Origin: a virus
Direction: 5' to 3' (one strand)
DNA: 64,000 bases
Virus record (IMG/VR): IMGVR_UViG_3300042351_000704
Coordinates: 45,552-109,551 of that record
The number at the start of each line of letters is the position of its first letter. Position 1 is the first letter of the stretch. The notes under the pieces were generated by a model. It was not told the origin of the DNA and searched no databases. It saw only the letters and a list, made by a program, of their open reading frames with translations. Shown here piece by piece: positions 2 through 26,800 of this stretch. The position numbers and the translations under genes are program-made.

Positions 2-907
2 CTGGCGGATAACCCGCTTGTTGGTGTAGGTGTACAAATGATCTATGATAATACCAATGAGATTATCTACATCAGTAAGAAAGATTACAAGCCAAAGGTT
101 AGTAACCTACTTTATGATGATAAAGGATTCTATTCTCTGGTAGGCACTGTAAAAACTTACCGTCCGTTTACCGATTCAACTGCATGGGAAGACGCCAGCT
201 GGACTGTATCATATGATCCAAAATCAAAGACCTGGATCAGCTACCATGACTGGAAACCTACGTTCCTGATACCTGGTAAGAATCATTTTATGAGTGTAAA
301 CCGTAACAGCATTTGGAAACACAACATGCGTTGCGATCTGTTCTGTAACTACTACGGTGTTGACTATCCGTTTGAAGTGGAGTTTATTTCTTCTACCGGA
401 CAGCAAACGACTTCTCTTAGAAACATTGAGTTCCTGCTGGAAGCATACAAGTATCATAACAGCTGTGCAGATAAGTTCCATGTACTGGATGAAAACTTTG
501 ACCAGGCTATTGTCTATAACTCTGAGCAGATCTCCGGACTACTGGAGCTGAACTTAAAGAGCAAGACTAATCCGGTGTCGATGTTAAACTTCCCGCAAGT
601 GGGACCACAGTCTATCAAGATCCTATACGCAAAAGAAGAACAGAAGTACAGGTTTAACCAGTTCTGGGATATTACCAAGAACCGTGGAGAGTTCAGTGCA
701 ACAACCAATGTACCAATGTTTAATACCAGGGCTAACGGATATGAGTTCCCGATTAACCCTCAGTATGTAAACTATCAAAAGTCACCACTTGAGCATAAGA
801 AGTTTCGTCATAACGTGAACCGTGTATTACTCCGTAAACTGAAGAGTGCAGACGTGAAGCTACTATTCAAACTATCTAACCAGAAAATATTACAATCACC
901 GAGGTAA
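2..907 (+). CDS. C-terminal part of a crAss-like tail stabilisation/muzzle-type virion protein (5' truncated by window)
   Basis: Frame is open from nt 2. Contains WISYHDWKP and other aromatic-rich beta segments like crAss-like tail stabilisation proteins. Lies directly before the cargo genes, with a TAATG overlap at 905-909. Confidence 0.55.
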   Translation: MADNPLVGVGVQMIYDNTNEIIYISKKDYKPKVSNLLYDDKGFYSLVGTVKTYRPFTDSTAWEDASWTVSYDPKSKTWISYHDWKPTFLIPGKNHFMSVNRNSIWKHNMRCDLFCNYYGVDYPFEVEFISSTGQQTTSLRNIEFLLEAYKYHNSCADKFHVLDENFDQAIVYNSEQISGLLELNLKSKTNPVSMLNFPQVGPQSIKILYAKEEQKYRFNQFWDITKNRGEFSATTNVPMFNTRANGYEFPINPQYVNYQKSPLEHKKFRHNVNRVLLRKLKSADVKLLFKLSNQKILQSPR

Positions 908-3900
908 TGAGTCAGTTCCTAAAATATATTACTAAGAAGATGCGTGGTGGTGGAGACATTGGTTCTTTGCCAGGTGTTCTTTCTTTGTCTGCTATCCAGC
1001 AAAAGATCAAGCTTGAAAAGGACATTAAAAATCAGAAGGCTAGAAATGCTCAGGCTACTATTTCTCAGTACATTCCAAAGCCTGGAGATCAGCAGAGAAT
1101 GAACAGAGCCAAAGATGCTTACCGTGCAGACCTTGCTAAGCCTTTAAACAGGGCAGCAGAGTCTCAGCTGGCAGCCAATGCCTGGAGCAACATTGTAAAG
1201 CCTATGCTGGAAATGGAAGGGATTGCATCTGGTGTTAGTGGTGTACGCAGTATGCTGGCTAAACCAAAGAGAATACCTACCAGTTTTTATTCTGATCCGG
1301 TGATTACTAGAGGACCTATTCCTAACCCATGGGATGGTAAAGGAATACGCGTGGAGATGGAAGGATCTTTAGACGTACCAGAAGGTATGATGCCTTATAT
1401 AGGTAGGGAAGAGTGGGTTCCGACTACACCTGCAGAAAAGGTGTGGGCATCTTTTTTTAACGGAAAGGCAAGACCTATTCCTCCTCCATATAAAAAACAA
1501 AAAGGTGGAGCTTATGTAGACTCTGTCTTTAATGCTCCAAATAATAAACAACTAGAATGGGTTCAAAGACTCTATCAAAAAAATGGTAAGAGTATTATGG
1601 TACCTGGACAAACTGAACCGTCTACACATTATATGGAAAGTGGTGATGGTCGTGTGTATCCAACTGTAGTAACAATGCCTGACGGTAGTTTAAAATATTT
1701 AGGTAAAGGTGCTTATGATTATGCAGACTCTACTAAAACTTACATAAAATTTCCAACAGATAATCAAGCCAAGTGGTTTGGTAAGAACTATAAAAAAGGA
1801 ACTGGTGTACTAGCTAAGAAAAAAGGCGGTCCTATAGTAGACCCTCGTGGTCAGTGGGCACATCCTGGAAAGGTTACACGTATACCAGGATCTGACATCA
1901 CTATGCAAGGTGTACCTTATCCTGTATTAGGTGTAGGCTCTAATGGTCAACAGCAAATGATGTATCCTGGTGAAAACTATGATTTTGGTGGTGCTGCGTA
2001 TGTAGATGAGTACCCAATGATGCAGTTTGGTGGTGGAACATTACTTGGTCCTTCTGGAATGATAATGTCACTAGCTTCTAAAGTTGCTAACTATTTTTCT
2101 AAACCAAAAAGTTCGGGAACTAATAAACGCATGACGACATATGGTCAAATGAATGATAGTTATGCTAATAGAAATAAAACTTTCTATGATAAGTGGCAAG
2201 CTAATGATGCAATAAAGTATGATAGTTCAGTGAACCCTATTAATTTAACTTCTGGTCGTTTTAGAGGAGCTAAGGTAGCACCAGGAATGATTAATGATAT
2301 AGTTAACGCAGCTAAAACTAATAATGTAGATCCATGGTTAATGTTATCTCTTGTAGGTAGAGAATCTACTTTTGGCGCAGACAAGGAGTATATTGACCAC
2401 AGAGAAGGTAATAAACAAGACTTAATTTCAGGTTGGAATGTAGCAGAAGATTATCAACCATATGAAGTAAATAGATACTTAGCTGATAAAAAAGTACCAG
2501 GTATTAAAGTAATTAAAAATAGTGATGGTTGGAGTTATGAAGTAGAAGATGAACAAGCTATAGAAAGTTATCTAAAAAGTAATCCCAAACTTATAGATGA
2601 TTATTATAAAAAATTAGCATCTACACCTGATCTTGGTAAACTAGATAGTTTTTCTCTTGCTGCTCAAAGGATTAAAAAGAAAGGGGTTAAGAATTACAAT
2701 CCCGGTGATCCTAGATATTCTTCTATGGTAAATGAAGATATGAATCTTTTAAAGAATGATGCTGCATTAAAAGCATACATGAAAACTCTAGGATATAGAC
2801 AAGGTGGAGAATTTGGTGGTGTTGTTAAGATGCAACGTGGTGGTAGATCTATGTTTGATCCTATATTTAAGGAGGATCCAAAGCTTAATAAAAACAGAGG
2901 TGATATAGCATCCTACTTTCCTCAGATACAAAGGATGAAGGATGAACCTAAGATAAAGGAGGCAATCGTTAAAGCTGATCAGAAAAGACAACAACAAATA
3001 CTTGCAGAGGCAGTTGCTATAGGTAATAAAAACAGAACCACTGTTAAACAAGATAATAGAACATCTAGAGAAAAAGAGATTGCTCAACAACAAGTTGTTA
3101 ATGCATACTTGAATGAAGCTAAAGGTAAGTCTCCTTTTGCTCAAACATTAAGTTCTTTCACACCAACAGGATATAATCCAGAGGCTAGTAAGATAGCCGC
3201 TGAAAACATAGGACAAATGACTCCTATGATGGGAGCCACTAGATTATTTAACACTGTAAGAGATCCTGAAAATAACCCTTATGGTATTGGTCAAGGGAAT
3301 GGATTTCTAGCAAATACATTAGGTACAATAGGATTACTTGGAGATGTTTTTGATGTAGGTGCTGTAGCTGCTCCTGGTGTAAAAGCTGCAGGTAATTATC
3401 TTACCCAACAAACACCTTTAAGAAATGCTCATAAGTTAAATCCTTATGCTTTAACTGATGATATGTTGTTTAACAAAGAAGGAGTTGTTAACAGACAAAT
3501 GTTTGGAGATGATGCTTACAACAGTTTTTTAAAATTTGGTCCTACTACTAGACCAGGTGTTCCAGAAATGGATAAGTTTATGGAATTTATTAAAGCACCT
3601 AGATCACAAATAAGATCTGCAAATGATGAGGTGTTTGAGGTTGTAAACACTATGGAAGATGGAGTATTTAAATATCCATATTTTCAAGAAGGTAGTCTTT
3701 GGTATACAGGACAGCAAAGAAATAATCTTGCTAAGGAATTAGGAAAAGAAAGAATTATAACAACTCCTAAGTCAGATATTTGGTTTGCACCAGCTGGAGA
3801 AGCTACATTAATGGGTGGTGATGATCTTGTTTCAAAAGGTTTAATAGATAGGTACTCAAAAGGAAGAAGAGTGTTGATACCAGGAACTGAGTACGCCAAA

Positions 3901-6171
3901 CCATCTAAGTATTCTGTATTTGAACCACATTGGTGGAAAGGTTATAAACAACTACAAAAAGATGGTGGTCAGATTTTAAATGACTATGATATAATGCAAT
4001 TAGGAGGTCAGTCTGCAAAGAAAAGTCCGTATTTTTTTATGAACTTAAATGATGACTTTACTACAATGCTTAAAAATAGAGACTATGTAAAAAGTGAGTA
4101 TAACAAGGGTATGGATTTTCATACTAAGTGGCTTAACTCGCCTATGTACAAGAGTATGATTAATGCATCTGATCCTGTCAATGCAAAAAATATTACTGAC
4201 CAACGTAAAGATCGTCTTTCTGCTGTGACTATGAAATACGTTGATGACCCATATAATAAAGCTGGAGCTTCTGCTGATCAATTAGGAAATATAGAAGTAT
4301 ACCCAGAAGGAATTGGTGCTAAAGGTATAGGTGTTCATGAGATCTCTCATGTAACAGATACAGGTCCAGGTCAAAATCTTATACCTACTAAAGATAGGAT
4401 TGATATATCAAGATATAGTCTTGCTTCAGAAAATATCCCAAAGTATAATGCTTATAAAGAGTATTTTAATTATGTTACTCGACCTTCAGAAACAAGAGCT
4501 AGGTTAAATGAAATACGCCAAGGAGCTTCTGAAAATAAATTATATGATCCATTTACTGAGAAAGTAAGTCCAGCTATATATAATAAACTTAAAAACTTCA
4601 AGTTTAATAGTACACCTGGTAGTGATCCTCTTCAACAATTAAGGTCTGCTTACAGTGATGAACAGATTTTACAAATGCTTAATAGTGTTTCTAAATTAAG
4701 TACTAATAAAAATAATGATATGCAAAACATGATGAATGATGGTGGAGAAATGATACGTAGAGCTGATGGCACATACTCTCGTAGAGGTCTATGGGACAAC
4801 ATACGTGCTAACAAAGGATCTGGCAAGAAGCCTACAAACGAAATGCTGGAACAAGAACGTAAGATCAAAGCTAAAGAAATGAAATACGGTGGTGGCACCA
4901 ACAATCCTGGCTTTGAAGCTTTGCCTGATTATGTACAGGCTAAGATCCTTTCTAACATGGGATATGGTGGAATGACCTATCCGTTTATGCAAAAAGGTGG
5001 TGAACCTGATGGATCTATGGCTCTTGGTCAAATAGATGCTGCTATGGATAAACTACAAAAGCTTCGTCAGTTTATACAACCGGATTCTGATCTCGAACCA
5101 TGGATAAGTTCTAAACTTACTATGATGGATGACTATGCAGATGCTGTTTCTGACTACATGATGTATAATCCAGATGCTGAACTAGATGAACTAGACCAAA
5201 TGAGAAATGGCGGATATGTTGTTACAAGAAGTGATGACCGTAAAGGAAAGACACATAAAGTGACCGGACCTGATGGTACTGTAAAATACTTTGGTGATTC
5301 TAAGCTGGGTCAGCACCCGGGTGATCCCGAAAGAAAAGAAGCATTCTATGCACGCCATAAAAAGAATCTGGATGGTAATCCATACTTCAGAGCGTTTGCA
5401 AGAGAGACATGGGCAGATGGTGGTGCTCTAGAATATGGTATGGGTGGAATGCCTTGCTATGAGTGTGGTGGCGCTATGTATAAAGAAGGTGGAATGTACG
5501 ACTGTCCTGATCAGGAAAAAGATCCTGTAACAGGTAAATGTAAAGCTGAGGTTGTTCGTGGTAGAGAAGCAAATGCAGCTAACAAAGCAGCTAATGCAGA
5601 CATGAACGCATGGGCTAAGCAAGTTGCTGCTATGGATAAAGAAGTTGCTAAACAGAATGCTGCTCAGTATGCAGGACAAAGAAGTTTTGATTATGACTGG
5701 ATGCAATCTCCTGTAGATAAAGCAGAGAAGAAAGCAGCCATTGCTCAATACAAACAATTTATTCAGCAGAACCCTAACGTATTTGTAGCAGATGATTCAT
5801 CCGGGGTTAGCCCAGAACAGAAGTATATCATTGCTTCTAAGCTTAAGCAAAAGTCAAGCACTCCAATGGGGTCCAAAGCATTTCAGCAAAAGTTTAACCA
5901 GGATGCACGCTTACTAGATCTTGGACGTATACAGTCTGACATTGTTCCTTTAATGGGTGGCTGGAGTGGAATTCAGAACTGGCTTTTTGGTAATAAAAAA
6001 TTCGGTGGCTACATAGGACAAGACGGAAAACGTCACATGTCTAAAACACCTACCTGGTCTGGTAATGCCGGTTATAAACAAGGCGGTCCGGTTATAGGAG
6101 AAGAGATGGAAGTAACTCCGGAGCAACTGGAACAACTTCGCGCACAAGGCTATGAATTTGAAATAATCTAA
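907..6171 (+). CDS. 1754-aa modular virion cargo protein (SLT-like lysozyme, zincin HExxH, DUF5754-like and other small modules separated by xxxGG motifs)
   Basis: AAKTNNVDPWLMLSLVGRESTFG (SLT motif), GVHEISH...ETRARL (zincin), RKGKTHKVTGPDGTVKYFGD..H..D.ERKEAFYARH. About 19 MQxGG/YKxGG/KKxGG motifs. Confidence 0.75.
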   Translation: MSQFLKYITKKMRGGGDIGSLPGVLSLSAIQQKIKLEKDIKNQKARNAQATISQYIPKPGDQQRMNRAKDAYRADLAKPLNRAAESQLAANAWSNIVKPMLEMEGIASGVSGVRSMLAKPKRIPTSFYSDPVITRGPIPNPWDGKGIRVEMEGSLDVPEGMMPYIGREEWVPTTPAEKVWASFFNGKARPIPPPYKKQKGGAYVDSVFNAPNNKQLEWVQRLYQKNGKSIMVPGQTEPSTHYMESGDGRVYPTVVTMPDGSLKYLGKGAYDYADSTKTYIKFPTDNQAKWFGKNYKKGTGVLAKKKGGPIVDPRGQWAHPGKVTRIPGSDITMQGVPYPVLGVGSNGQQQMMYPGENYDFGGAAYVDEYPMMQFGGGTLLGPSGMIMSLASKVANYFSKPKSSGTNKRMTTYGQMNDSYANRNKTFYDKWQANDAIKYDSSVNPINLTSGRFRGAKVAPGMINDIVNAAKTNNVDPWLMLSLVGRESTFGADKEYIDHREGNKQDLISGWNVAEDYQPYEVNRYLADKKVPGIKVIKNSDGWSYEVEDEQAIESYLKSNPKLIDDYYKKLASTPDLGKLDSFSLAAQRIKKKGVKNYNPGDPRYSSMVNEDMNLLKNDAALKAYMKTLGYRQGGEFGGVVKMQRGGRSMFDPIFKEDPKLNKNRGDIASYFPQIQRMKDEPKIKEAIVKADQKRQQQILAEAVAIGNKNRTTVKQDNRTSREKEIAQQQVVNAYLNEAKGKSPFAQTLSSFTPTGYNPEASKIAAENIGQMTPMMGATRLFNTVRDPENNPYGIGQGNGFLANTLGTIGLLGDVFDVGAVAAPGVKAAGNYLTQQTPLRNAHKLNPYALTDDMLFNKEGVVNRQMFGDDAYNSFLKFGPTTRPGVPEMDKFMEFIKAPRSQIRSANDEVFEVVNTMEDGVFKYPYFQEGSLWYTGQQRNNLAKELGKERIITTPKSDIWFAPAGEATLMGGDDLVSKGLIDRYSKGRRVLIPGTEYAKPSKYSVFEPHWWKGYKQLQKDGGQILNDYDIMQLGGQSAKKSPYFFMNLNDDFTTMLKNRDYVKSEYNKGMDFHTKWLNSPMYKSMINASDPVNAKNITDQRKDRLSAVTMKYVDDPYNKAGASADQLGNIEVYPEGIGAKGIGVHEISHVTDTGPGQNLIPTKDRIDISRYSLASENIPKYNAYKEYFNYVTRPSETRARLNEIRQGASENKLYDPFTEKVSPAIYNKLKNFKFNSTPGSDPLQQLRSAYSDEQILQMLNSVSKLSTNKNNDMQNMMNDGGEMIRRADGTYSRRGLWDNIRANKGSGKKPTNEMLEQERKIKAKEMKYGGGTNNPGFEALPDYVQAKILSNMGYGGMTYPFMQKGGEPDGSMALGQIDAAMDKLQKLRQFIQPDSDLEPWISSKLTMMDDYADAVSDYMMYNPDAELDELDQMRNGGYVVTRSDDRKGKTHKVTGPDGTVKYFGDSKLGQHPGDPERKEAFYARHKKNLDGNPYFRAFARETWADGGALEYGMGGMPCYECGGAMYKEGGMYDCPDQEKDPVTGKCKAEVVRGREANAANKAANADMNAWAKQVAAMDKEVAKQNAAQYAGQRSFDYDWMQSPVDKAEKKAAIAQYKQFIQQNPNVFVADDSSGVSPEQKYIIASKLKQKSSTPMGSKAFQQKFNQDARLLDLGRIQSDIVPLMGGWSGIQNWLFGNKKFGGYIGQDGKRHMSKTPTWSGNAGYKQGGPVIGEEMEVTPEQLEQLRAQGYEFEII

Positions 6172-6174
6172 ACT

Positions 6175-9100
6175 ATGAGAATACGTATAACAAAGAAAGG
6201 GTTAGCTAGTTACCAGGGTGCCATTGGTTCAAGCCAGGTTGGTGATCCAAATGATGCATGGATTCGTAAGATCCTTGAATATGAAGCACAGAAAGGATCT
6301 GCTACAGGTAGTGGTTTGTCTAACTTTGGGTATAATAATTGGCAAAAGCTAGGTCATAAAAACCCTCCTCGTTCATTAGATGAAGCTGTAGAATTTTATA
6401 AACAAGACTTTCTTCCTAAAGTACAGCAGTATCCCATGGGTCTTCGTGAGCGTATGGGAGACTATATATTTAATACAGGTAGAAATCCTAATGACTTGCT
6501 TCTTTATAACGCAGGTAAGATTACACTAGATCAGTTAAATAGTCCAAGTACATTTACAAATGAGTGGAATCAGTTTGGTCCTGAGATTGAAAAACAGTAT
6601 AGTAAGCCTAGCTTTATTAATAGCTTAGATGCTAATAAAGAAAATGTTTATAAAACTACAGGAACTTATGATGCCCCTGATCCATTAGATCCTACAAAGA
6701 ACGTTAAGACTCGCTATTCTTTAGATAATCCTAATCCTGCTTTTACAGCTACTTGGCAAGGACGTACAAATATGTGGGGAAATTATTTAAACCCTAAAGC
6801 TACTACATTACCTACACGTAAACCTGTTACTAATCCTACTGCACCACAATCAATTAGTAGCAAAACATCATCTGCTGTTCTTCCACCTACTGCTACTGCT
6901 CAAACAATTGCAGGTGGGTTAAACAATGACCAGCTTATGTATGGAGCTAATCCATTTGTTGTAACACAAGCTGATACTGATATGGCTGACCTTGCATCAA
7001 ACAGTGCTGCGTCACCTATAACACCATCTCCTTCACTTCCTGCAATGAATATGACAGGGATGAATTATGCATGGACTAACTTTGGTCAGGCTCCTACAGT
7101 ACCTACACCACGTGTAACTACAGTGTCTCCAAGTGGTGCTAAGACAACTACCGGTAATGTTGGTAAACCAACCGTTCAGTATCAAACAAACAATAACGGT
7201 ACACCGGCTGCTCCTTTTAATGTGGTGCGACCGGGAAAAAAACCATCAAGATCTCCTTTTGACCTGGTAGACCTGGCTTTGCCTGTTGCCCGTTACTTTA
7301 ATGCAGAGGCTCAGGTGAAAGACGCACGTATTAAAGAAATGGAATCCCGTTTCAATACGCTGCAAGGTGCTCCTAAGTTTCGTGGCAACTTTACAATCAA
7401 CGAAGGTTTATTCAGACCTGATGACAGAGGTGTAAACGAAGGAATGTTTAGTAATGGATTTTACGCTCCTACCATGCAATATGGTGGAGATATGATAGAA
7501 GATACAACAATGAACTCTATGAAAATACGTATAACAGGTGCGCCACAGATGGCGTATGGCGGACAATCAAACTATGGTCTTGACTTAGGTCAGCGTAATG
7601 TGTATGAGAATATGCAGGACAGTCTTTCAGAAAACAGTTCTGAATCTATGTCTGAGCAATCTGAAGCATACGGACCTCATGTACTGGAAGCCGAAGGTGG
7701 TGAAACCATCCTGCGTCCGGACGGCACACATTTCAACATCTCAGGAGACAGACATCACTCAGGTGGTGTAAAGCTAAACCAGGACCAGGCTCCTTCAGGT
7801 TCATTTATATTTTCTGATACCAATAAGATGAAAATAAAAGATCCGGCTATACTGGCAAAGTTTGGCGTTGCCTATAAAAAAGGTGGCGTTACTCCGGCAC
7901 AGATTGCCAAGAAGTTTAAGCTGAATGATTTTAAAGCACGCCTGGAAGACCGCACCAGACAAACTGATTCTATCGGTATGAACTCTGATACCCAGATGAT
8001 GAAAAAGAACATGCGTTCACTGGCTGAACTGGCTATGATACAAGAAGCGATGAAAGGAGAACAAGCTCCTATGATCAGCCAGGCTATCCTGGGATCTTCT
8101 GAAATGGCATATGGCGGACATGTGATGCCTAAGTTCCAGGGAGCCAAAGGTTCTTCTACTGTAAAAGGTGGTCTGGGTGAATGGAGCGATGACTATGAAA
8201 CATTAAAGACATTACTGCAGGATCCTAAGAACGCAGGCCTAAGAAAGTCTATGTTCCAGAACTACCTGAAAGACTATTCTAAGTCTCCATTAAAGAATGA
8301 TCCAAAAGGAGAAGACAAGTTTATACAAAACTTCCTGGAAGCTCAGCGTCAGTTCATGGGTATCCGTGCTTCTTATGCTGATAAACCAGATCAGCTTACT
8401 TCAGAAGACTGGGATCGTACAGGTAAAAACAGACGTTACCAGGCAGAAGCTAAAAAGCTTGGATATACTCCTTTAGCAGAAACAGACATCAAACGTTTTC
8501 AGGGTGGTTACCGCGCACTTGCAAAAGCTTCCCGTAATCCTGAGTTCTTTGAGAACTTCTCTAAATACTTCAAGTTATCACCTATAGGTGTAAAAGATGA
8601 GGAGTATTTAGGTCAGCCTATTTCTAAAGATGATTCATGGGTAGGTAACACTACTCTGGGTCAGCTGGCTCAACTGCGTGATGTAAAACCTGGAGAGCAA
8701 CCAAAGCCTCGTTACATCTGTGATGCTAATGGTAAAATTGTTACCGTAGCAACAGGTGGTTACGCCACTGCAGATGAAGCACGTAAATATTGTCCTGAAA
8801 AGAAAAAACCAGGTTCTAAATATGTATGTATAGACGGACAGGTAATCACCACTGAATCAGGTGTAGGTTATGACACTCCGGAAGAAGCAGCACAAAACTG
8901 TGGTTCAGAGCAGGGTAAAGTACCTTTTGAATTCCTGGCTCCTGATAAGATGAACATGGCCTGGAAGTTTAATCGTGCCGTTCCAAATATCTATTTACCA
9001 GAGATGTATCAGTTACCTAGACGTCAGTATCCTCTGGCGCTCGATGATTGGTTTGCCCGTGTACAAAACAGACAATCCACATACAACACTGCTATGGACA

Positions 9101-9759
9101 CTGCAGCAAGAACTAACCAGTCTCAGGCTGTAGGATCTTTCCTTGCAGGACTGGTAGGCGCACAGGATGCAACTGATATTGCACAAGTAAACTCTGCTAA
9201 CCTGGATCGTGTAGACAGAAGACAATTAGTAGATATGGAAACAGATTTTAAAAATGATGTCTTCAACCTGGGTCAACGTCAGGAATACAGCAAAGGACTT
9301 GCAATTGCTCAACAGCAATTTGATAATGCACTTAACAAAGGTGTGGGAGATGCAATACAATCATTTGCTGATGCGTATGAAAACCGTGGTGATCTTTATG
9401 ACATCAACATGCGTGATCCGTATTTTTATCGTCATCCGGCTAACTACAAAACAATCTTCAAAGGTTCTACCGGAAACATTTTTAATGCTGGTACTATTGC
9501 TGGTATTGGTACTAATGGAGCTGGTGGGTTTTCAGGTGTTGGTGCTTCTGCTAATGCTGTTTACAAAGATATATATGATGGCTTGACAGATGTGAAAGAT
9601 GAAAAAGAGAGATCAGCATTTGCAAAACAGTTAGCAGCTAATTATATGGCTGGGTCTCGTCAGACTAATACTCGGTCTTACGATGCGTTTGGATTCCCAA
9701 GATCATCAAGTCGTAGATCATCTAGCTTAAACTTTTTTAACCAGGATGATGACCAGTAA
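6175..9759 (+). CDS. 1194-aa virion cargo protein with N-terminal GH108-like muramidase domain
   Basis: KILEYE...NFGY...LDEAVEFYKQDF..YPMGLRERMGDYIFNTGR follows the GH108 pattern. Also has an EAEGGE..G.RH..GGV..FIFSD module, MQYGG/MAYGG motifs and a Pro/Thr linker. Confidence 0.65.
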   Translation: MRIRITKKGLASYQGAIGSSQVGDPNDAWIRKILEYEAQKGSATGSGLSNFGYNNWQKLGHKNPPRSLDEAVEFYKQDFLPKVQQYPMGLRERMGDYIFNTGRNPNDLLLYNAGKITLDQLNSPSTFTNEWNQFGPEIEKQYSKPSFINSLDANKENVYKTTGTYDAPDPLDPTKNVKTRYSLDNPNPAFTATWQGRTNMWGNYLNPKATTLPTRKPVTNPTAPQSISSKTSSAVLPPTATAQTIAGGLNNDQLMYGANPFVVTQADTDMADLASNSAASPITPSPSLPAMNMTGMNYAWTNFGQAPTVPTPRVTTVSPSGAKTTTGNVGKPTVQYQTNNNGTPAAPFNVVRPGKKPSRSPFDLVDLALPVARYFNAEAQVKDARIKEMESRFNTLQGAPKFRGNFTINEGLFRPDDRGVNEGMFSNGFYAPTMQYGGDMIEDTTMNSMKIRITGAPQMAYGGQSNYGLDLGQRNVYENMQDSLSENSSESMSEQSEAYGPHVLEAEGGETILRPDGTHFNISGDRHHSGGVKLNQDQAPSGSFIFSDTNKMKIKDPAILAKFGVAYKKGGVTPAQIAKKFKLNDFKARLEDRTRQTDSIGMNSDTQMMKKNMRSLAELAMIQEAMKGEQAPMISQAILGSSEMAYGGHVMPKFQGAKGSSTVKGGLGEWSDDYETLKTLLQDPKNAGLRKSMFQNYLKDYSKSPLKNDPKGEDKFIQNFLEAQRQFMGIRASYADKPDQLTSEDWDRTGKNRRYQAEAKKLGYTPLAETDIKRFQGGYRALAKASRNPEFFENFSKYFKLSPIGVKDEEYLGQPISKDDSWVGNTTLGQLAQLRDVKPGEQPKPRYICDANGKIVTVATGGYATADEARKYCPEKKKPGSKYVCIDGQVITTESGVGYDTPEEAAQNCGSEQGKVPFEFLAPDKMNMAWKFNRAVPNIYLPEMYQLPRRQYPLALDDWFARVQNRQSTYNTAMDTAARTNQSQAVGSFLAGLVGAQDATDIAQVNSANLDRVDRRQLVDMETDFKNDVFNLGQRQEYSKGLAIAQQQFDNALNKGVGDAIQSFADAYENRGDLYDINMRDPYFYRHPANYKTIFKGSTGNIFNAGTIAGIGTNGAGGFSGVGASANAVYKDIYDGLTDVKDEKERSAFAKQLAANYMAGSRQTNTRSYDAFGFPRSSSRRSSSLNFFNQDDDQ

Positions 9760-17889: not shown

Positions 17890-20800
17890 ATGGCTTGTAG
17901 ATTATCAGAAGATCAAATATCCGCATTATTCGGAGCTGTTCACGGTGACGTGATTGCTTCTAAGAACCGTGACGATAAGTTTAATGCATTACAAGCTATC
18001 AGAGACTTGTACAAAAAGTTAGTGGACGCTGGTGCCGAACCAGTAAATGCCCTAGATTATATCCAGCATATGCCTAGTATGCTATTGCTTAGCTATGCAA
18101 TGTTTGAAGACAGCAAAGCGCACATGCGTAAAAGCCAGGTGAACCTTTCTGAGCTGGATCAAATGGATGCAGACTTTACAGCCGATATACAAAACGTTGC
18201 CAAGTTCATCATGCCCGCTCAAGCCGGAGCTGAACTGGTAAAAGAGATCATAGAAGAAACTAATCCGTCTACCGGTGTACAACCTACCGAGGTGTATACA
18301 CAAGTAGAAGACCTGGACATACAAAAGAAAAAAGAGTTCTATCAATCAGAAACTTCTTTTGTGGCAGCTCCTGAAACAGCGCTGGCTGTATTTAACCAGG
18401 AAGCTAAAAACTATGATGGTGCTACCGCTGAACAAAACATCCCGGACCCTGATCCTATCAAGCGTGCTTACTATGCTGTGGTAAGAAAGCTGAACAACCT
18501 GATGAGCCAGTACAATCGCGAAACAGCGGACAACCTGACCCTGGGTAATGTAACCGGTATTTATTACAGACTGGTACCTGCCAGCAAGGTTGAATTTGAA
18601 GACCTGCAGCAATCAGATAAAGATTACTACTCTAAAGACGATAACCCGAACGCTCCGTTTGCAAAGACTTCCCAGCAAAAGATGGAAGCCCGCACTACAG
18701 GAGATGAAACCTATCTGGTATTCACCGACAAGGAAGGTAACATCCTTCGCTTCAATGAAGAAGGTGTACCGGTAGATAAGGCAAGTGGTGGTATGGTGGC
18801 ATACGGTAAACTCCGTAGACCTTACACACCAGCCAGAACCAACGAGGCTAAAGGCCAGGTGGCCGGTCAACGTATGGTGGGTCGTGTACAAACTGTCAAT
18901 GACCTTGTTCGTAAAGGACTGGGTACAATGGAAGAGCTTACCAAAGAGCGTGAGCAGGAAATGGACATCTTACAAAAGTCCAGAGAGTATGTGGTAAACA
19001 ATCCGGATGAAGTGTTACTGTTCTCTGTTATACCAGGTAAGAACGGTTACATAAAAGAAGACTTTTCTGCACCTAATCCTATCAGCTCTATCGAGCTCAC
19101 TGATGGCTTCAAACCGTTTGTTTCTAACCAGGATGCTGGTACACTGATTAAAGGTGGCGTATACTTCACTGTTCCTGGCTACGAGTTTCCATTACTGATC
19201 CGCAGACCAAAGTTTCAAAACATTCCGAACCTGGTAGATAACCTGGCGGATATGCTTTTTGGTTCAGAGGCTTCTAATAATGACAAGATCAAAACCGTTA
19301 AGCAGTTTACTTTTTCTAATGATACCAACGTGTATGAAGTAGAAGGCAAGCTGATGTTCAAACAAAACGGTAAAGAGCTGGAGGTAACACCAGAAAACAA
19401 AGAGGCGTTTATCAATACGCTGAATGGTCAAACCATTAACATCAATAAAGACCTGGTTGGTACAACGATTAACATGCCTGTCAACATGGACGGCAAGGTG
19501 ACTTTGCAACCAGAGCGTTACAATAACTTTTTATCAGATAACTTCTTTACGTTCCTGGCTAAAAACGATGATGGTAAGATTGTTAGCCTGAATGCATATA
19601 ATGTAATTGCTCCAACCGAGCAAACACAAACCAAGTTATTTGGTGAGGTGGCAACACCTGAAACCACTGCAAAAGAGTCTGCTTTAGAACAAGCTACTCC
19701 TTCTGATAACAGCATTGCTGATTTTAAGAGTTTACTGGAAAGCACAGACTTCAGTTTAAAGAAGTCTATGATGCTGGATAGCACCGCTACTCAGGAGCAG
19801 ATTGATGCTGCAGAGAAATGGTACAACAGTTCTCCTTACAGTAAGGTGGTGCCGTTTAGCGTTATGTTCAATGTAGTGAACTCAAATGCACTGGCTGAAT
19901 TCACAGTATCGGGCATTACACTTTACTCCGGATCTAACTTTACAGATCTTTACCACGAAGCATGGCACGCGTTTTCTCAGATGTTCTTAACCAAGGACCA
20001 GAAGAAAGCGTTGTACAACGAAGCACGTAAACTTACCGGCAGCTTCAAAACAGTAAGCGGGCAAACAGTTAAATATAGTGCTGCTTCTGACATGCAACTT
20101 GAAGAGTTTATGGCAGAAGATGTACGTAAGTATATTCTGTCTGATCGTCAGAACGTAATCAACGGACGCCCGGTACGTAATACATTATTCAGAAAGATCT
20201 TTACTTTTTTAAAGCAACTATTCAGCGGGTATAGTTTAAAAGACATTGCTGCTGACCGTACGGCTGTAAAAGGCATACAGGAGCTTTATGATAAGTTTTA
20301 TGTAGGTAATGTCAATGACTATACTCCTTCTATCAGGAACGTACAATTTGGTATTCTTAACAAAGGGGTAGAAGCGTTAGACACTGCTACAGACCAATCA
20401 CTGAACTACCAGGATTCTATGACCATGGTAGAAACCATTGACTCATTGATGGCATCGATTATCTCTGATGCAGGCAAGAGTGTGGGTTCTATATTTACCC
20501 GCCCTGAACTGATGGGTCCTTTATACAAGACCATAAAGAGTAAGTTACAGGATATAAAAAACAATACACCTGCTGAACAAGCCAATGTAAATCGTATCCT
20601 GGACTTTGCTTTAGCTAACTGGGGAGATTTCTCTAAGGTGGCTAATGGCGAAGAAGCTACTGGTATGATTGCTTTCCATAAGAAGAGAAGCTCTTACTTC
20701 ACGTTTGAAGACAGGATGGCTGAGATGGATGGCTTTGACCAGAAAGAAAATGAGCAGGCTGCAGACCAAAAAGATGCAGACAACCCACTGGCTAAAACCG

Positions 20801-23800
20801 AGCAGGAGCTTCGTGAAGATTATGGAGCCAATGTATTTGAACGTAAGGGTAATGAACTCTCTGTACGTGAACTGGCTTCTAATGAAATAGTATACTTAAT
20901 CAAGAGTCTGCCTCAGCTGGACAAGCAAGGTAAGCCGGTGCTGAATGCACTGGGTGTACCAAAGCTAGTAGACTTCAACAGGACCTGGGGTATTGTGATC
21001 AACACCGTAGCCGGTTCTAATACCACTAACCAGATGTATGGTAAGTTACTGGACGCAGCAACGCGTTTCCCGGAACTAAAAACATTGGTGGCACGCTTAG
21101 GTAATCCAATGGATTATAAAGAGACCAAGCACTGGCCTTATATGAAAATGTGGATTAACTTCTTCAGAGACTTCTCTGTATACCGTGTACCGGTGAAAGA
21201 GGGACGTTTAATCAACAGCGATGGTAAGTTCCGTTTTGAGTTCAGTGAAGTGAACCCGCAGTTCCGCCAGGTAGAAAAAACCTTTGGCGCACAGTTTCAG
21301 TCACAGACTAACAATCCATATGTAACCAAGTCTGCAGCAGGTAATCAACTGAACACTGTAAAGGTGATGCAGGATTTCCCGTACAGTCAGATCTTTGGTA
21401 AAGACTATACAATCATCAACCAGGATAAAGCCATGGACTTTTTAAAAGCCATTGGTCTATACATGACAGATAACGGAGCGATCAGAGAGCAGATTGAAAA
21501 GAACTACAGTGCTGTAAGCTATTTACACAAAGCTGTAAAAGACATGGCAGCAAAAAAGACCATGCCGTCTAATCCGGTGGAAGCTTTACGTAAAGTGGAA
21601 GCTACCAGCATCAGACGTTTGCTTACAATAGAAGCTGCCGACAGTGGTAAGTATTCTAACAATGCGGTGTTGAACGTAAACGGTGATGTAATCTTTGATC
21701 TGAGCTTAAATAACTCTATCACTAAACTGCTGAATGATCTGAACGATGCTTCTAAAGATTATTCTATGATGCAGTTACCACACCTGCAGCACCTGGACTA
21801 CCGCAGAAACCCGTTTGCTAAATACTCTATCTGGTTAAACTCCATGTTCAGTATTCCGAGCGGCAAGATGGTAGATCAGAAAAATATCAACCAGCGTATC
21901 AAGACAGATACTAACTATGCCAGCGGCATGGTAACGCTTGACATTGTAAACCTGGATGGTATTAAAAGTGTACAGGAAAGAATTGCAGGTGGTCAGTCTG
22001 TAGAAGCTGGTATTAAAACTACCAACCTGGATCCGGTATCTAAGTTTATACTGGACCTGCACACCATGTTATCTCAAGGTGTGATGGAACTTCCAAGACA
22101 TGCTTCTAAGTCTACAGCTTATGGAGTGTCTGTTTCCAAGATTAACAGTCCGTTTAACACAGACAAGACTCGTCATTTATATATCAGTCCTGGTCATTTT
22201 GCAGACAAGACCCGTGGTTTAACGTATACAGTAGACCTGATGTTACCAAAGATCGCTGCTGAAATGGAGCGTATCGCTATGGTAAACCAGGGCGTGGGTG
22301 CCAACATTCCAGGCTTTAATCAGCGTGGTAAAGAGTTCATGATGTTTGATGACATCTTAAGTGATGCTACCAAGACTGAACTGAAAGGTATGGTAAGTGC
22401 AGATGATTCACTTTCTCCAATCAGTACACCTGAGATCAAGCAAAAGATTACTGCAGATATCCAAAGCTATTTAAACAAACTGGTTACTGAAAACACCAAT
22501 CTGTTTAATGAGATGCCTTTCATCTCTGACGAACTGTTACATAGCTCAAGAGATGGCAAGAGTGATATTGCTTCTTACATCCGTAAAGATCTGGGAATAG
22601 CGGTGGGTGATGATCAGCAGGCAATGCTTCGTGATGTAGCTATCAAAGCTTTCACTGTAAACGCCTTGATACATAACATGGAAACCATCTCTGTACTATA
22701 CGGAGACCTAGCCATGTATAACCATGATAAAGAAGAGTTCCACAAGCGTAATGCTGCGATCGGTTCTACCGGTAGAATCTTTGCCAGCGATGAAGCGGTA
22801 AACCAGTTTATTGATAACTTGGGTGGCGCGTATGCCCGTAAGATTGGAGCTAACCAAAGAAGCTTTGATGGTGTGCTTAGAAGCGTGGTGTTCAAAGACA
22901 ACAACGTTTCTTCCGTATACTACAATGAATACCTGGAAGCACTCACCGGTAAATATGGTGCAGAGAAAGCAGCCAGCATTCTAAAGCCATACAAGAAGAT
23001 GACTGAAGGAGATGCACAAGGGTGGATCACCTTTGACTCTTACAGAAAACTTTCTTTGTTAGAGGGAGCCTGGTCAGAAAAGCAAAACGAACTTTACAAT
23101 AAAGTGGTAGCCGGAGAACAGATCGATCCTTCAGAGATCAGTGAGTTTTTTCCTACCAAGAAGTTTCAGTATGCAGGACCTGTAAAAACAGATAAGCTGC
23201 ATGTACAGGCGTTTCATAAGTTCTCTTTAGTGCCACTTGTACCAAGCCTGGTGAAAGGAACCAACATGGAAACCCTTCATGATAACCTGACCAAGCAAGG
23301 AGTAGACTACGCCCTGTTTGAATCAGGATCTAAGATGGCCACCCTGACCGCTAACGGTACACCGGATTCTTTATACGAGAACGATGACTATACAAACAGA
23401 AACATCAAACCTTGGAATGAGGGAGATGCTACCTATACACCGAATGATGTGTTCATTCAGTATTTAAAAGATCAGGTGGATATTCAATCTACTTGGAAGA
23501 ACAAGACTATCTTTTCTACCCAGCTTCGTAAGCTTATTATCAATGACACATTCAAGCAAGGAATGGCATTGGCAGGTTTTGAAGGCTTGGTAAAAGATTT
23601 TGAGGGCTTATTGGACACCCTGCAGGAGAATAAGAAAAAAGAACTTTTGAAGGAAGTAGGCTGGACAGAAAATGCTTCTGGTGAATTAAGTGGAAGTGTA
23701 AAGAACCTAATGGAGTTTGTGATACGTGAAATGGAGCGTCTGGAATTACCAGAGCATGACATTGACTACGTACGTGAAGGTGTTCAGAACGGTACGTTTA

Positions 23801-26800
23801 CTGACCTGAGCTTTTCACTAAATGCAGAGATGATCGAGAAGATGCTTAACAACATTGTAGTGAAGCGTCTGGTAAAACAAAAGATGAACGGTGAGCAGTT
23901 AGTACAAGTATCTGGTGCTGGTTTTGAAAGGCCAGGTTTTGTAAAAGCTACCGAAGAAGATGCTGTAAAGTATGGTACAAACGATTTACCTACATACCGT
24001 CCAGGTAAAGGCAAAGATGGTAAGACATCTGCCATGAAAGTAAAGATCTCTATGAAAGGAGATTACTACAAGCTTCTGAACCTCAAGCATAATGACGGTG
24101 AAAAGATTGGAACCAGAGAGCGTCTTAATGAAATGATCAAAGACGATCAGTGGTTGGATAAAAGCGATCACCGTAAGATGATTACGATGGTGGGGGTACG
24201 TATTCCGGTACAGGGATTAAACTCTATGGAGTTTATGGAAGTGTATGAATTCCTGCCTGAAGAAGCCGGATCTATTATCATACCACCTGCTGAGATTGTT
24301 GCCAAGAGTGGATCTGACTTTGATATTGATAAGCTCACTATATTCCAACCGAACATCAAGACGGCTAAAGACGGTGTGCCTTCATTCATTAGTGCCAACA
24401 ACACCAAGGGTACAGAAAACAAGATCATTGAAAAGATCCGTGAGATTCTGGAGCACCCAGATAACTTTGATGCCCTCATTCGTCCAAACGATACTGACCT
24501 GGTAAAAGGTGTGGCAGATGAACTGGCTGGTGAAAACATCCAAGGCTATGATCCACTAGCTGTAAAGACCGGTGAGAAACGCAGTGGTAAGGGGAAACAA
24601 GTAATTTCCCCGACACGTGTACTGGAGCCAAGATATAATCTATATAAACACGAAAGTAATAACGTAGGTAAAAAGACTTTAGGTATTGGTGCGGTGGATA
24701 ATGCTTACTCTTCTATATTTAAAAGAGTTGGTGCACGCCTTGAGAAGTCATACACTCATTATAAGAGAGAAGATGGACAGATCAACTTTGAAAAAGAACC
24801 ACAGATCCGTCCTATTAATATTCGCATGGATCATAACACCATGACAGAATCAGGTAAAGAGTACATCTCTTTATCAGATATCAATACTGTTACCATGGAT
24901 AAGGTGAGTGACCTGATTGGTCAGCTCATGAACGGATGGGTGGATATTGAAAAAGATGCCTGGATCTTTAACATCAACGGTAACAACGTTGCCGGACCGG
25001 TGCTGTTATTCTTACTCGAAACTGGTGTAGACTTTAAGACCGCTGCTTATTTTGTATCACAGCCTTTAGTGGTTGACTACATTAAAGAAATCTACAAGGT
25101 GGAAAGCCCGTTTTATAATGCGGCTAATCCTTCCAGTCCGGTGGATTCAGAAAAAGGTCTGAGGAAGTTCAACGTAAAGAAAGATTTCTATATCAAATAT
25201 CAGATGGGTGCCCTGACTAAAAAGGGTAACCTAAACAATGAATTGTTGTATGGTGCTATAGAAGACTATAACAAAAACCGTACGTACGATGTAGCATCTT
25301 TACAAAAAGTAATCAAGTCTAAAGACAGGGACAGTGATGACGCGATTGCCGGACTCCTGCACTTTATAGAACTAGAAGAGCTTACTAAGCAGTTGACTAA
25401 TATCAAGCTTACCGTGAACGTAGATACAGCTCCTTCTAAGAGTCTGTTTGCTGCTACTGAGCGTTTGGATAAGATTGAAGGACTAGAGTATGTTGATGCC
25501 GTACCGAAGAGTACGATCAATAATATCCTGACAGATTCTCCAATTAGTTCATTCCTGGTACAAAAGTTCCAGCTGGCTATCTTAAAGCCACTGATGAAGC
25601 TCAGAGGAGATGTAGAGGTAAATGCATTCTTGTTAAGAAAGATACAGGCCCGTAACTATACCAGAGCGTTTGCAACTGCAGAGAAGTTTGTAGCTGCTTT
25701 CCACAACGACCTTCCGTTATACATGATGCAGAACTACCTGAAAAGTGTAGATCTTAAAAACTTAAAAGAGTACAAAGGACTTGCTATTGAGCAGGCTGTA
25801 CCAGTGAAGGGAGTTACACTCAGACAAGGTGCTTTTGTAAGAGACGGAGTGATGTATGTAGATATGGCTCAGATTGAAGATGATTTTGAAAACAATCATT
25901 ACACTGGTCCTGTATACAAATCACAAGGACTGGCTACGCTGGACCCGGGAACATTTAGCATGGGTACCAAATTCCAGAACCTGCAGGAGTATGCACACTT
26001 TGTAATAGAGCGTGAGTATCTAAGATCTGTTACTCCGGTGGGTAATGCATCCAGGGAAGTGTATGAGCAAAAGATCGCTAATCGTTCTTTAGAGCGTACG
26101 TTTAACTTTTATCACATGTTAAAAGCACCGGGTGTAAGTATTGCTGACCAGTTCCTGGACATCAAAACTAAATACGGTAAAGAGCTGACTGACCAGTACA
26201 TGATTTTCTCAGAACTTGGATATGTCAACGAAGGTGCTAAAGTAGATGAAGAAGGTAATGTATCTCAGGGTAACAACAAAAAGCTCAGAACTTTAAAGCT
26301 GAACTCTGCCCGCCTGGATACAGATTTGATCAATGTACTGCATGAAAACCTGGTGCGTCTGGCAGATCCTATGACCGTAAAGGTGGACAACCCTGCACAA
26401 AATGCGGAGATTAGTAAGTTCTTTAACCGCATGATCATAGCAGAATATTTAAGAGCAGGTATCACCAAGAGTGGAGACAACCTGGCTAAGATCCTGCCAA
26501 AAGAAACTTTACTGAAGCTGATGGCAGAGCCGTTACAAGAGCTGTCAAACAAGCAAAATAAAACAGAGCTGCTCGATCAGTACTATGATCAGTTCATAAG
26601 TCTTTGGGATTCAAAGAATTCTAGCACTCGTTTAAAGTATCGTAACTACCTGAAGCGTTCTGATATGGAAGGAACCTCACCGGCAACAGTGCGTACACTG
26701 GAAGATGTGGTAGAAGGAGAAGGTCTGAACGTAAATGCACAAGACCTGATGGTGTATCCTGCATTACCAGGAGGAGCTAGTGCTACTAAGATGCTGGCTA

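Follow-up and report, generated by a model that had tools for sequence, protein, structure and literature searches.

A Gly-Gly seam motif at the joints of a cassette-built, probable virion-cargo protein of a divergent crAss-like phage

Nearly every joint in P0001, a large modular protein of a divergent crAss-like phage, carries the short seam peptide [M/Y/F/W]-x-x-G-G, and we tentatively read this peptide, with a probability of roughly 0.4, as working mainly as an uncut standard joint between cassettes. On our own weighing, this reading ranks ahead of proteolytic processing sites, and these in turn ahead of a packaging tag. The seam pattern itself is genuine; Pro is frequent at -5, as is doubling of the motif, and we found no paper in the literature describing a Met/Tyr-x-x-Gly-Gly joint pattern. 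Few known viruses are as common as the crAss-like phages. A standard joint by which unrelated modules are strung together and exchanged would explain the rapid diversification of their early-infection toolkit, and it offers a simple rule for dividing giant 'hypothetical' proteins into units for separate expression and assay. Were the joints cut, they would represent a new maturation system in tailed phages; were they left uncut, they would be a natural portable linker for proteins that unfold and refold in translocation.

Results and discussion

P0001 occupies the position of a crAss-type cargo protein

P0001 lies in a window of 64,000 nucleotides (the whole stretch of DNA analysed here) from a genome of 109.5 kb (~110 kb, ~85% complete, 93 ORFs), in which a CrAss_Ring_1 match is found. 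The gene order runs from a gp43-like ORF through a short 136-aa ORF and a muzzle-position virion protein of 1523 aa to P0001 and P0002 (Table 1), with a gp50-like vRNAP of 3112 aa further downstream. This slot is that of the crAss001 cargo protein C1 (gp45; Bayfield et al., 2023, PMC10172136; PDB 7QOG and related entries), which likewise follows the muzzle-position protein and precedes the C2 and vRNAP genes. Judged by this placement beside tail and vRNAP genes of crAss type, P0001 is probably carried inside the phage particle as cargo. BLASTP finds nothing significant between P0001 and gp45; the GG dipeptide occurs 21 times in the latter, in aromatic-x-x-GG contexts, and one copy lies 17-21 residues from the N-terminus. 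P0001 differs from C1 in being twice as long and in bearing enzyme-like modules, and nothing in the genome matches crAss_CARG1 (PF25725, the portal-binding domain), even with the threshold relaxed to E <= 10.

In architecture, P0001 resembles the 'polyvalent' proteins of phages and conjugative elements described by Iyer, Burroughs, Anand, de Souza and Aravind (2017; PMC5512222), which are large and highly mosaic, with many unrelated domains strung together (lysozyme, zincin peptidase, ART and 'LPD' among them), are encoded with virion genes by phages that have a portal-terminase system, and are predicted to be packaged and injected; the gene context of P0001 agrees with this. P0001 too has several unrelated globular domains in one chain, the polyvalent criterion. 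Its homologs carry ART-PolyVal (51.8 bits in P0010), ADPrib_exo_Tox, Amidase_2 and YkuD, and its own modules match no Pfam PolyVal or LPD model. The words 'glycine' and 'linker' are absent from the text of PMC5512222, which apparently describes no joint motif.

Table 1. Features of P0001 and the adjoining P0002 (nucleotide positions refer to the window, residue numbers to the protein).
Feature	Position	Strand	Remarks
P0001	907..6171	+	frame open, 1754 aa; cassette-built cargo-position protein of 'polyvalent' type
N-terminal cap MSQFLKYITKK and first seam MRGGG, aa 1-16	907..954	+	
Module aa 17-201, ends KQKGG	955..1509	+	26 breakpoints clustered at aa 194-203
Module aa 202-308, ends KKKGG	1510..1830	+	103 breakpoints clustered at aa 293-326
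Most widespread module, aa 309-377, PIVDPRGQWAHPG...EYPMMQFGG	1831..2037	+	covered by ~120 of 414 HSPs
Candidate lysozyme-like module aa 378-634 (GRESTFG, NYNPGDPRY), ends YRQGG	2038..2808	+	
Paired seam YRQGG-EFGGVVK-MQRGG, aa 630-646	2794..2844	+	34 breakpoints at aa 631-648
Module aa 647-1034, Gly/Ala-rich hydrophobic stretch 804-822, ends QKDGG...MQLGG	2845..4008	+	
Zincin-like HExxH module aa 1035-1280, HEISH at ~1144-1148	4009..4746	+	disordered tail with MMNDGG
Small helical modules aa 1281-1436, with seams MKYGGG, MGYGG, MQKGG and MRNGG between them	4747..5214	+	AF2: helices between linkers, pLDDT <50
DUF5754-like 70-aa cassette aa 1437-1506, ends WADGG	5215..5424	+	
Cys4 mini-module CYECGG-AMYKEGG-MYDC-x11-C, aa 1515-1548	5449..5550	+	retained by 34 of the 119 homologs
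Rest of module, aa 1549-1701, ends NWLFGNKKFGG	5551..6009	+	
C-terminal cap behind YKQGG: PVIGEEMEVTPEQLEQLRAQGYEFEII and stop codon	6088..6171	+	
P0002, next cargo-position protein	6175..9759	+	seams MQYGG 434-438, MAYGG 459-463 and 644-648, YKKGG 567-571

The seam motif is enriched and specific in pattern

All 19 of the xxxGG strings that a first-pass annotation had listed in P0001 are present in the order given, as are the MQYGG and two MAYGG that it had placed in the next gene, where YKKGG occurs in addition. Four further GG runs in P0001 were absent from that list (YDFGG, 358-362; EFGG, 635-638; TLMGG, 967-971; PLMGG, 1681-1685). GG dipeptides number 26 in P0001, against 15.8+-3.6 in shuffled sequences (p ~0.006), and [MYW]xxGG is observed 16 times where 1.7+-1.3 are expected, the maximum in 20,000 shuffles being 8; 30% of the gaps between GG runs are those of close pairs, compared with an expected 15%. 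When the 93 ORFs of the genome are compared, [MYWF]xxGG occurs 16 times in P0001 and four times in P0002, every one of these four in a seam-like context. A glycine-rich tail-fibre ORF of 1425 aa also has four, in an unrelated context, and the remaining ORFs have 0-3 each. At orthologous joints, the M and the GG are conserved at 0.8-1.0, giving a pattern of conserved, variable, variable, Gly, Gly. About five GGs of P0001 are intramodular rather than joints, namely YDFGG, TLMGG, PLMGG and, because both lie inside the conserved Cys4 element that holds all four cysteines of the protein, YECGG and YKEGG.

Seams coincide with module boundaries and points of exchange

The earlier proposal that P0001 is modular, with its motifs at domain boundaries, is borne out: the protein consists of 11 or more modules, free of internal repeats, and breakpoints, DNA tract ends and model linkers coincide with GG. 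P0001 has 505 mosaic homologs, among which module order is shuffled. Internal BLASTP breakpoints (n=731, from 119 homologs) fall within 5 aa of a GG in 60% of cases, versus 13% of the length; none of 244 circular shifts equalled the observed fraction, and each breakpoint cluster with at least 20 endpoints sits 0-7 aa from a GG. The ortholog comparison that had been suggested for module gain or loss at GG gave a clear answer: among relatives, it is precisely at these points that modules are gained, lost, reordered, split and fused. The module that follows the N-terminal cap in P0001 is internal in the homolog P0005, behind MQRGG; the module at aa 202-308 stands alone in three loci (L005, L007 and L008); and the module at aa 309-377 is found in 11 of 11 related loci, with DNA tracts that begin 1-4 codons from KKKGG and stop at MQFGG. 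A 742-nt tract with 92% DNA identity to L005 begins 3 codons past WADGG. In P0004 and P0005, PIVDP comes straight after the counterpart of the module at aa 1549-1701. The 70-aa cassette is found in 289 cluster representatives at 79-94% identity and at any position in the protein, beside at least 28 types of upstream and at least 45 types of downstream neighbour; GG stands immediately before it in 127 of 146 representatives, and in 116 of these 127 the -3 position holds M, Y or F. In an AF2 model of aa 1262-1560, which is of low confidence (mean pLDDT 54), all nine seam GGs lie in stretches with pLDDT <50, and a helix ends 1-4 residues ahead of the GG at three of the nine joints.

The same exchange data bear on whether the motif has any role in the protein. 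DNA identity tracts stop 0-4 codons from GG, and GGT encodes the first Gly in 17 of 21 seams, as against 57% of Gly codons overall; both observations favor the motif being mainly a by-product of cassette recombination, a DNA microhomology of the form ATG CAA nnn GGT GGW that plays no part at the protein level. We consider this very improbable, however, as no more than ~8-10 of the 15 bases are invariant and different codons serve for the second Gly, and the Y/F/W alternatives at -3, together with the variable middle codons, point to peptide-level selection.

Dedicated caps and enzyme-like modules

The ends of P0001 are distinctive. KYITKK in its N-terminal cap resembles RIRITKK at the start of P0002, so that a (+)-hydrophobic-ITKK signature is common to the two proteins. 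The C-terminal cap gives a weak match to DUF7210 (18.2 bits), and all 47 occurrences of its signature, G[YF]x[FLIV]E[IVLMR] (of the QGY[EQ]FEI[IL] type), are terminal, with none internal.

The assignment of a zincin holds at the level of the fold for aa 1035-1280, a putative zincin metallopeptidase. Its AF2 model (pLDDT 86.5, pTM 0.82) aligns by VIA-align mostly with zinc metallopeptidases, ECE-1 being the best match at Z 7.6 over 174 aa (rmsd 4.4), a score that is moderate only (Z <8); PepO, neprilysin, LF, PPEP and thermolysin follow. Foldseek matches are weak (E ~0.2), the top ones belonging to the same families, and the nearest language-model clusters, a lead only, are those of LPD23 (score 0.85). 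Of 26 homologous HSPs, 24 retain the HExxH motif (HEISH), with H110, E111, H114 and E161 nearly invariant, and we infer that E161 is the third zinc ligand. The DUF5754-like assignment of the 70-aa cassette is probable, by transitive homology: the P0001 segment itself scores 12.3 bits against a cut-off of 27.4 for DUF5754 (PF19058), and a region of P0007 that is 61% identical to it reaches 28.6 bits, above that cut-off. The SLT/lysozyme-like identity of aa 378-634 is a lead only; the language model places it closest to clusters of glucosaminidase, SLT and tail lysozyme (0.85-0.87) and an E-S motif can be seen by eye, with no Pfam match and no PDB match by sequence or profile.

How the seams might work

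In our tentative view P0001 is a virion-cargo 'polyvalent' protein in which dedicated N- and C-terminal caps frame a string of at least 11 unrelated, independently folding cassettes, with the seams in flexible linkers. If the seams are uncut joints, as we prefer, each would combine a short hydrophobic anchor, or the end of a helix, with a Gly-Gly break behind it; the break would insulate adjacent cassettes, and each of these could unfold and refold alone during threading through the tail. In-frame exchange at any seam would then yield a working protein, which would account for the combinatorial diversity of the relatives. The shuffled module order, the strictly terminal caps and one gene pair in which only the fused form has the motif (see below) are in keeping with such joints. 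Structural evidence comes from a single site in a protein without detectable sequence similarity to P0001, crAss001 C1, which was modelled from residue 425 straight across the GG at 427-428 and is described by its authors as a single chain bridging tail and capsid (PMC10172136). Three observations count against a plain hinge: a conserved Met/Tyr/Phe at -3 after unrelated folds is not obviously needed by one, no more than three of the nine modelled joints come after a helix, and the motif copies found 12-21 residues from true N-termini in P0001, in a split ORF of locus L009 and in crAss001 gp45 look like a leader signal that something recognises.

A doubtful but more far-reaching possibility is that the seams are protease sites. 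The precursor would be packaged via its caps, and cleavage at [M/Y/F]-x-x-G-G, either inside the head or once ejected, would free many small effectors, the protease being an in-cis zincin, the zincin of another cargo protein, or a host or unrecognised enzyme. If this were true, this crAss-like lineage would release a customisable set of ~10 small effectors into the host, as a tailed-phage counterpart of adenovirus/ASFV Gly-Gly polyprotein maturation in which cassettes are swapped at the cleavage sites. Like protease sites, the motif is sequence-specific and exposed in linkers, and its middle positions vary; its leader-like copies near N-termini and its appearance where separate genes are fused (see below) would fit as well. 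The same chain also contains a zincin-like module, confidently modelled and with HExxH conserved; the structures that it matches, such as M13 and PPEP, are those of endopeptidases acting on peptides or linkers, and HExxH is far commoner among homologs than by chance (48 of 120, or 40%, versus ~0.008 expected per protein). Iyer et al. (2017; PMC5512222) also propose that an MPTase cuts polyvalent proteins into units.

Cutting at GG, as the first-pass annotation had considered, is nevertheless not borne out. No protease is universal: HExxH is absent from 60% of homologs and from the cargo genes of three of seven distinct related loci, and seam-motif density is no higher in the homologs that have it. 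Transfer takes place without cleavage for N4 vRNAP and for several proteins that bear an MPTase (PMC5512222), and the crAss001 C1 model is continuous across one GG. The suggested search for a CE-clan or other protease detected none by Pfam in this ~85%-complete genome, where remote homologs could escape: there was no prohead or CE-clan protease, and no peptidase family in the 75 smaller ORFs or the giant ORFs. At the commonest joint, Pro immediately follows GG, two motif copies lie inside the Cys4 element, and the capsid and portal proteins have no seam-like copies at plausible sites.

Known maturation systems offer partial parallels. Adenovirus adenain, and ASFV pS273R with pp220 and pp62, are Gly-Gly-specific maturation proteases and polyproteins whose sites, like the seams of the probable cargo P0001, are short motifs ending in Gly-Gly, with a hydrophobic residue a few positions upstream, that recur in virion-internal precursors. 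The adenain consensus is (M/I/L)-X-G-G↓X, and the seams depart from it in register by one position, with the hydrophobic residue at -3 from the first Gly rather than at -2. The T4 internal proteins and Alt carry a capsid-targeting leader that is removed by gp21; like P0001 as the proposed cargo, they reside inside the head, are injected and have a short leader at the N-terminus that ends in a defined motif. The dedicated T4 prohead protease, however, also cuts capsid and scaffold, whereas here we detected no such enzyme, and the motif is missing from plausible sites in the capsid protein.

Alternatively, the seam could be a tag that is bound and not cut, a repeated short linear motif with an additional version in the N-terminal leader, through which a capsid, portal, scaffold or tail part would recognise the cargo, loading it or ordering its ejection; we regard this as unlikely. 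That the -3 residue and GG are conserved implies one shared partner, the leader-position copies and the N-terminal signature common to P0001 and P0002 are in keeping with one, and paired or tandem copies would add avidity. In crAss001 C1, moreover, GG motifs at 209, 263, 427 and 562 flank the two resolved segments (214-245 and 425-552). Against this, the ordered, bound parts of that protein are modules and not linkers (residue ranges in PMC10172136). Split genes cut both ways for the docking-tag idea. In 17 phages, a fused form reads ...RRKE[YD]GGExxExDMANKPN..., and in others the split form has ...INYNHKRN and a stop codon, then MANKPN...; the motif exists only in the fused form and neither new end keeps it, which speaks against a tag. 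In L009, where the P0002 equivalent is split in two and the second ORF begins MKTYKVRIKKSPESMAYGG, the motif is kept within the N-terminal leader, which speaks for one. A good copy of the motif also stands directly after the domain of a DnaB-type helicase, a non-virion protein, and this too argues against a packaging role.

Cassettes of the cargo-position protein are joined at a conserved peptide

The first-pass annotation had described the cargo-position protein (P0001) as punctuated by some 19 xxxGG strings that might serve as cut sites, docking tags or recombination joints. All 19 strings were recovered in the same order, together with four GG runs that had been missed (YDFGG, EFGG, TLMGG and PLMGG). 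GG dipeptides are moderately enriched in P0001 (26 observed against 15.8±3.6 in shuffled sequences), and [MYW]xxGG occurs 16 times against 1.7±1.3, with a maximum of 8 in 20,000 shuffles; the signal lies in the context of these glycines rather than in their number. Among the 93 ORFs of the genome, [MYWF]xxGG is found 16 times in P0001, four times in the following ORF (P0002), always in a seam-like context, four times in a glycine-rich tail-fibre ORF, in an unrelated context, and 0–3 times elsewhere. The consensus across homologs has P at -5, M, Y, F or W at -3, Q, A, K or E at -2, any residue, and then the two glycines, after which E, Y, I or V is favoured. At orthologous joints, conservation of the -3 residue is 0.76–1.00 and that of both glycines about 0.9–1.0 (0.67 at one poorly aligned joint), whereas positions -2 and -1 mostly reach only 0.24–0.52, a pattern indicating selection on a specific peptide, here termed the seam, beyond mere flexibility. 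Paired seams are common, with gaps of 15 residues or fewer between GG runs making up 30% of the total as compared to an expected 15%.

A search of 5.8 billion proteins returned 505 homologs of P0001, each covering just 5–52% of its length. Their Pfam content (precomputed and re-scanned) includes ART-PolyVal, ADPrib_exo_Tox, Amidase_2, YkuD, Glucosaminidase, DUF5754, DUF5872, DUF3597 and DUF7210, an architecture of the 'polyvalent protein' type (Iyer et al., 2017; PMC5512222). Megablast and tblastn searches of 50,697 phage records with P0001 gave no match, and neither P0001 nor P0002 matched a Pfam or PHROGs model when scanned whole; ten segments scanned one by one yielded sub-threshold matches only, and a PDB sequence search with P0001 only chance antibody matches. 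Neither internal repeats in P0001 or P0002 nor modules common to both were found.

Comparison of P0001 with 119 homologs placed 60% of 731 internal BLASTP breakpoints within five residues of a GG, a zone that accounts for 13% of the protein length, and none of 244 circular shifts of the motif set reached the observed value; every cluster of at least 20 endpoints lies 0–7 residues from a GG. Module order also differs among homologs, as the module that ends in NWLF..K..GG is followed by YIGQDG in P0001 and by PIVDPRG in the homologs P0004 and P0005. At the DNA level, tracts of identity to related loci start and end 0–4 codons from GG, and one of 742 nt (92% identity) begins three codons past WADGG. 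The suggestion that GG motifs mark module boundaries, with modules gained, lost or exchanged there, is thus borne out by breakpoints, shuffled cassette order and DNA tracts alike: the seam marks the joints of a protein built from cassettes, which have been exchanged at seams during evolution. A literature search found no paper describing the motif.

One cassette illustrates this behavior across many proteins. The 70-residue DUF5754-like cassette (aa 1437–1506), searched against 1.84 billion cluster representatives, is present in 289 of them at 79–94% identity, at positions ranging from residue 16 to residue 1817 of proteins 115–2231 aa long. Among 146 full matches, 127 have GG immediately before the cassette and the remaining 19 a lone G; the residue three before this GG is M in 78 cases, Y in 26 and F in 12, and TWxxGG closes every copy. 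Upstream, the cassette adjoins at least 28 kinds of sequence, and downstream at least 45. A search for free-standing copies of 38–123 aa turned up just three, each on a contig of 1–2 kb and probably a fragment.

Protein ends, gene splits and gene fusions

The signature G[YF]x[FLIV]E[IVLMR], of the QGY[EQ]FEI[IL] type, lies at the C-terminus in all 47 of its occurrences in homologs, and the N-termini fall into a few conserved types; shuffling is confined to the protein interior. The P0001 tail, LRAQGYEFEII, which weakly matches Pfam DUF7210, may serve as a signal for packaging or docking. At the other end, P0001 and P0002 share a signature (KYITKK and RIRITKK, respectively) that may act as a packaging or ejection leader; P0002 also carries an internal repeat of it, MKIRITGAPQMAYGG.

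In three related phage loci (L005 7604-13335, L007 8375-11988 and L009 623-6354), the P0001 region is divided between two neighbouring genes separated by about 10 nt, the first ending in SSERINYNHKRN(K)* and the second beginning MANKPNNPALW. Seventeen homologs have the fused form, INYQHRRKE[YD]GGExxExDMANKPN, in which the former start Met is retained and the fusion point itself coincides with a seam; in this case the motif is part of the joint and of neither module. A second split points the opposite way: the start of an L009 ORF, MKTYKVRIKKSPESMAYGG, matches internal residues 446–463 of P0002, such that a true N-terminus keeps the motif in its leader. Leader-position copies are likewise seen in P0001 (KKMRGGG, residues 10–16) and in gp45, the cargo protein C1 of Bacteroides phage crAss001 (IFDTGG, residues 16–21).

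Structure of individual modules

The HExxH module (aa 1035–1280) is predicted to adopt a confident fold (pLDDT 86.5, pTM 0.82) with disorder at both ends, including the MMNDGG-bearing tail. Nearly all of the structures closest to it are zinc metallopeptidases, among them ECE-1 (Z 7.6, 174 aa, rmsd 4.4), PepO, neprilysin, Zmp1, lethal factor, PPEP and thermolysin; Foldseek gave weak matches to the same families. Of 26 homologous HSPs, 24 retain HExxH; a Glu downstream of it is almost invariant. Together, the modelled fold, its neighbours and these conserved residues support the earlier zincin call at the fold level, any peptidase activity being putative. For the candidate lysozyme-like module, PDB searches with the sequence alone or as a 17-sequence profile found nothing, and its SLT identity is a lead only.

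Inspection of a model of aa 1262–1560, low in overall confidence (54), shows all nine seam GGs within stretches of pLDDT below 50, which comprise 42% of residues; the DUF5754-like core scores 63–83, and at three of the nine joints a helix ends 1–4 residues before GG. Most of the listed motifs are joints, but YECGG and YKEGG are not, since both lie inside a small Cys4 element that contains all four cysteines of P0001. This element, conserved in 34 of 119 homologs, is probably a zinc-binding mini-module. A Gly/Ala-rich hydrophobic stretch, TLGTIGLLGDVFDVGAVAA (mean hydropathy 1.4), recalls a glycine-rich predicted membrane helix in crAss001 gp45.

Coordinates of features in the window
Feature	Position (nt)	Strand	Length or residues	Detail
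P0001	907..6171	+	1754 aa	cargo-position protein
P0002	6175..9759	+	1194 aa	next ORF
N-terminal signature, P0001	907-954			KYITKK
N-terminal signature, P0002	6175-6200			RIRITKK
Gly/Ala-rich stretch, P0001	3316-3372		aa 804-822	
Cys4 element, P0001	5449-5550			CYECGG..YKEGG..C..C (CxxC-x12-C-x11-C)
C-terminal tail, P0001	6088-6168			LRAQGYEFEII
gp50-like ORF	17890-27228	+	3112 aa	
DnaB-type helicase	47350-48423	-		DnaB_C at aa 46-310

Role of the seam

We consider the seam most likely to be an uncut, standard, flexible joint, a tentative assignment to which we give a probability of about 0.4. Its use as a processing site, though less likely, would account for a sequence-specific motif in exposed linkers and for copies in leader position. 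A zincin module also resides within the same chain, and Iyer et al. expressly predict that peptidases of this kind split polyvalent proteins into units (PMC5512222); however, HExxH modules occur in 48 of 120 homologs (chance expectation about 0.008 per protein), which makes them common but not nearly universal, and where they are present the motif is no denser. The genome-wide protease search that had been proposed, which took the form of Pfam scans covering 75 smaller ORFs as well as the giant ones, detected no peptidase family. Cutting is further disfavored by a Pro immediately after GG at the commonest joint, by capsid and portal proteins that lack a seam-like copy at a plausible site, and by a hydrophobic residue displaced by one position relative to the adenain consensus. 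In addition, crAss001 C1, treated by its authors as a single chain bridging tail and capsid, was modelled from 425 to 552, through an NAFGG motif at 427–428 (PMC10172136).

Beside the uncut joint, a tag bound during packaging or ejection is an unlikely role for the seam, and a mere by-product of recombination a very unlikely one. A purely nucleotide-driven origin was rejected because the DNA-level signal is weak, amounting to a modest GGT preference. A Shine-Dalgarno-like GGAGG was also rejected, as GGA GGT occurs in just 1 of 21 seams, and translation initiated internally, at the Met of a seam, would leave Y, F or W in that position unexplained.

Genomic setting

The window forms the final 64 kb of a single virus record of 109,551 bp, with completeness put at about 85%. 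The large terminase of this genome shares about 25% identity with the terminases of crAss-like phages of Bacteroides, Flavobacterium and Cellulophaga; portal and capsid proteins match PHROG families, and one ORF matches Pfam CrAss_Ring_1. Upstream of P0001, a 298-aa ORF matches crAss001 gp43, and downstream, the 3112-aa ORF matches gp50, the putative RNA polymerase of crAss001 (E 6e-18). With a further match to DUF7831 at its C-terminus, the 3112-aa protein is probably the virion RNA polymerase. The gene order (gp43-like, a 136-aa short ORF, 1523 aa, P0001, P0002, 479, 573, 1630, 3112 and 1761 aa) parallels crAss001 gp43 to gp50, placing P0001 where crAss001 has C1. The two sequences show no detectable similarity, and the crAss_CARG1 model (the Pfam domain of C1) matched nothing in the roughly 85% complete record.

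Pfam matches among the other ORFs (G000:C1 1-45551 and window 32700-63900), recorded for the set rather than by ORF, include ATE_C (arginine-tRNA-protein transferase C-terminus; E 2e-10), spore photoproduct lyase (E 2e-11), bpMoxR, cREC_REC, a cohesin domain, Glyco_hydro_19, a DnaA C-terminal domain and a family B DNA polymerase. The sole non-virion protein with a strong seam copy is the DnaB-type helicase (Pfam DnaB_C, E 5e-21), in which EPQMAQGG (aa 318–325) directly follows the domain and is itself followed by a 30-residue tail that terminates in acidic residues.
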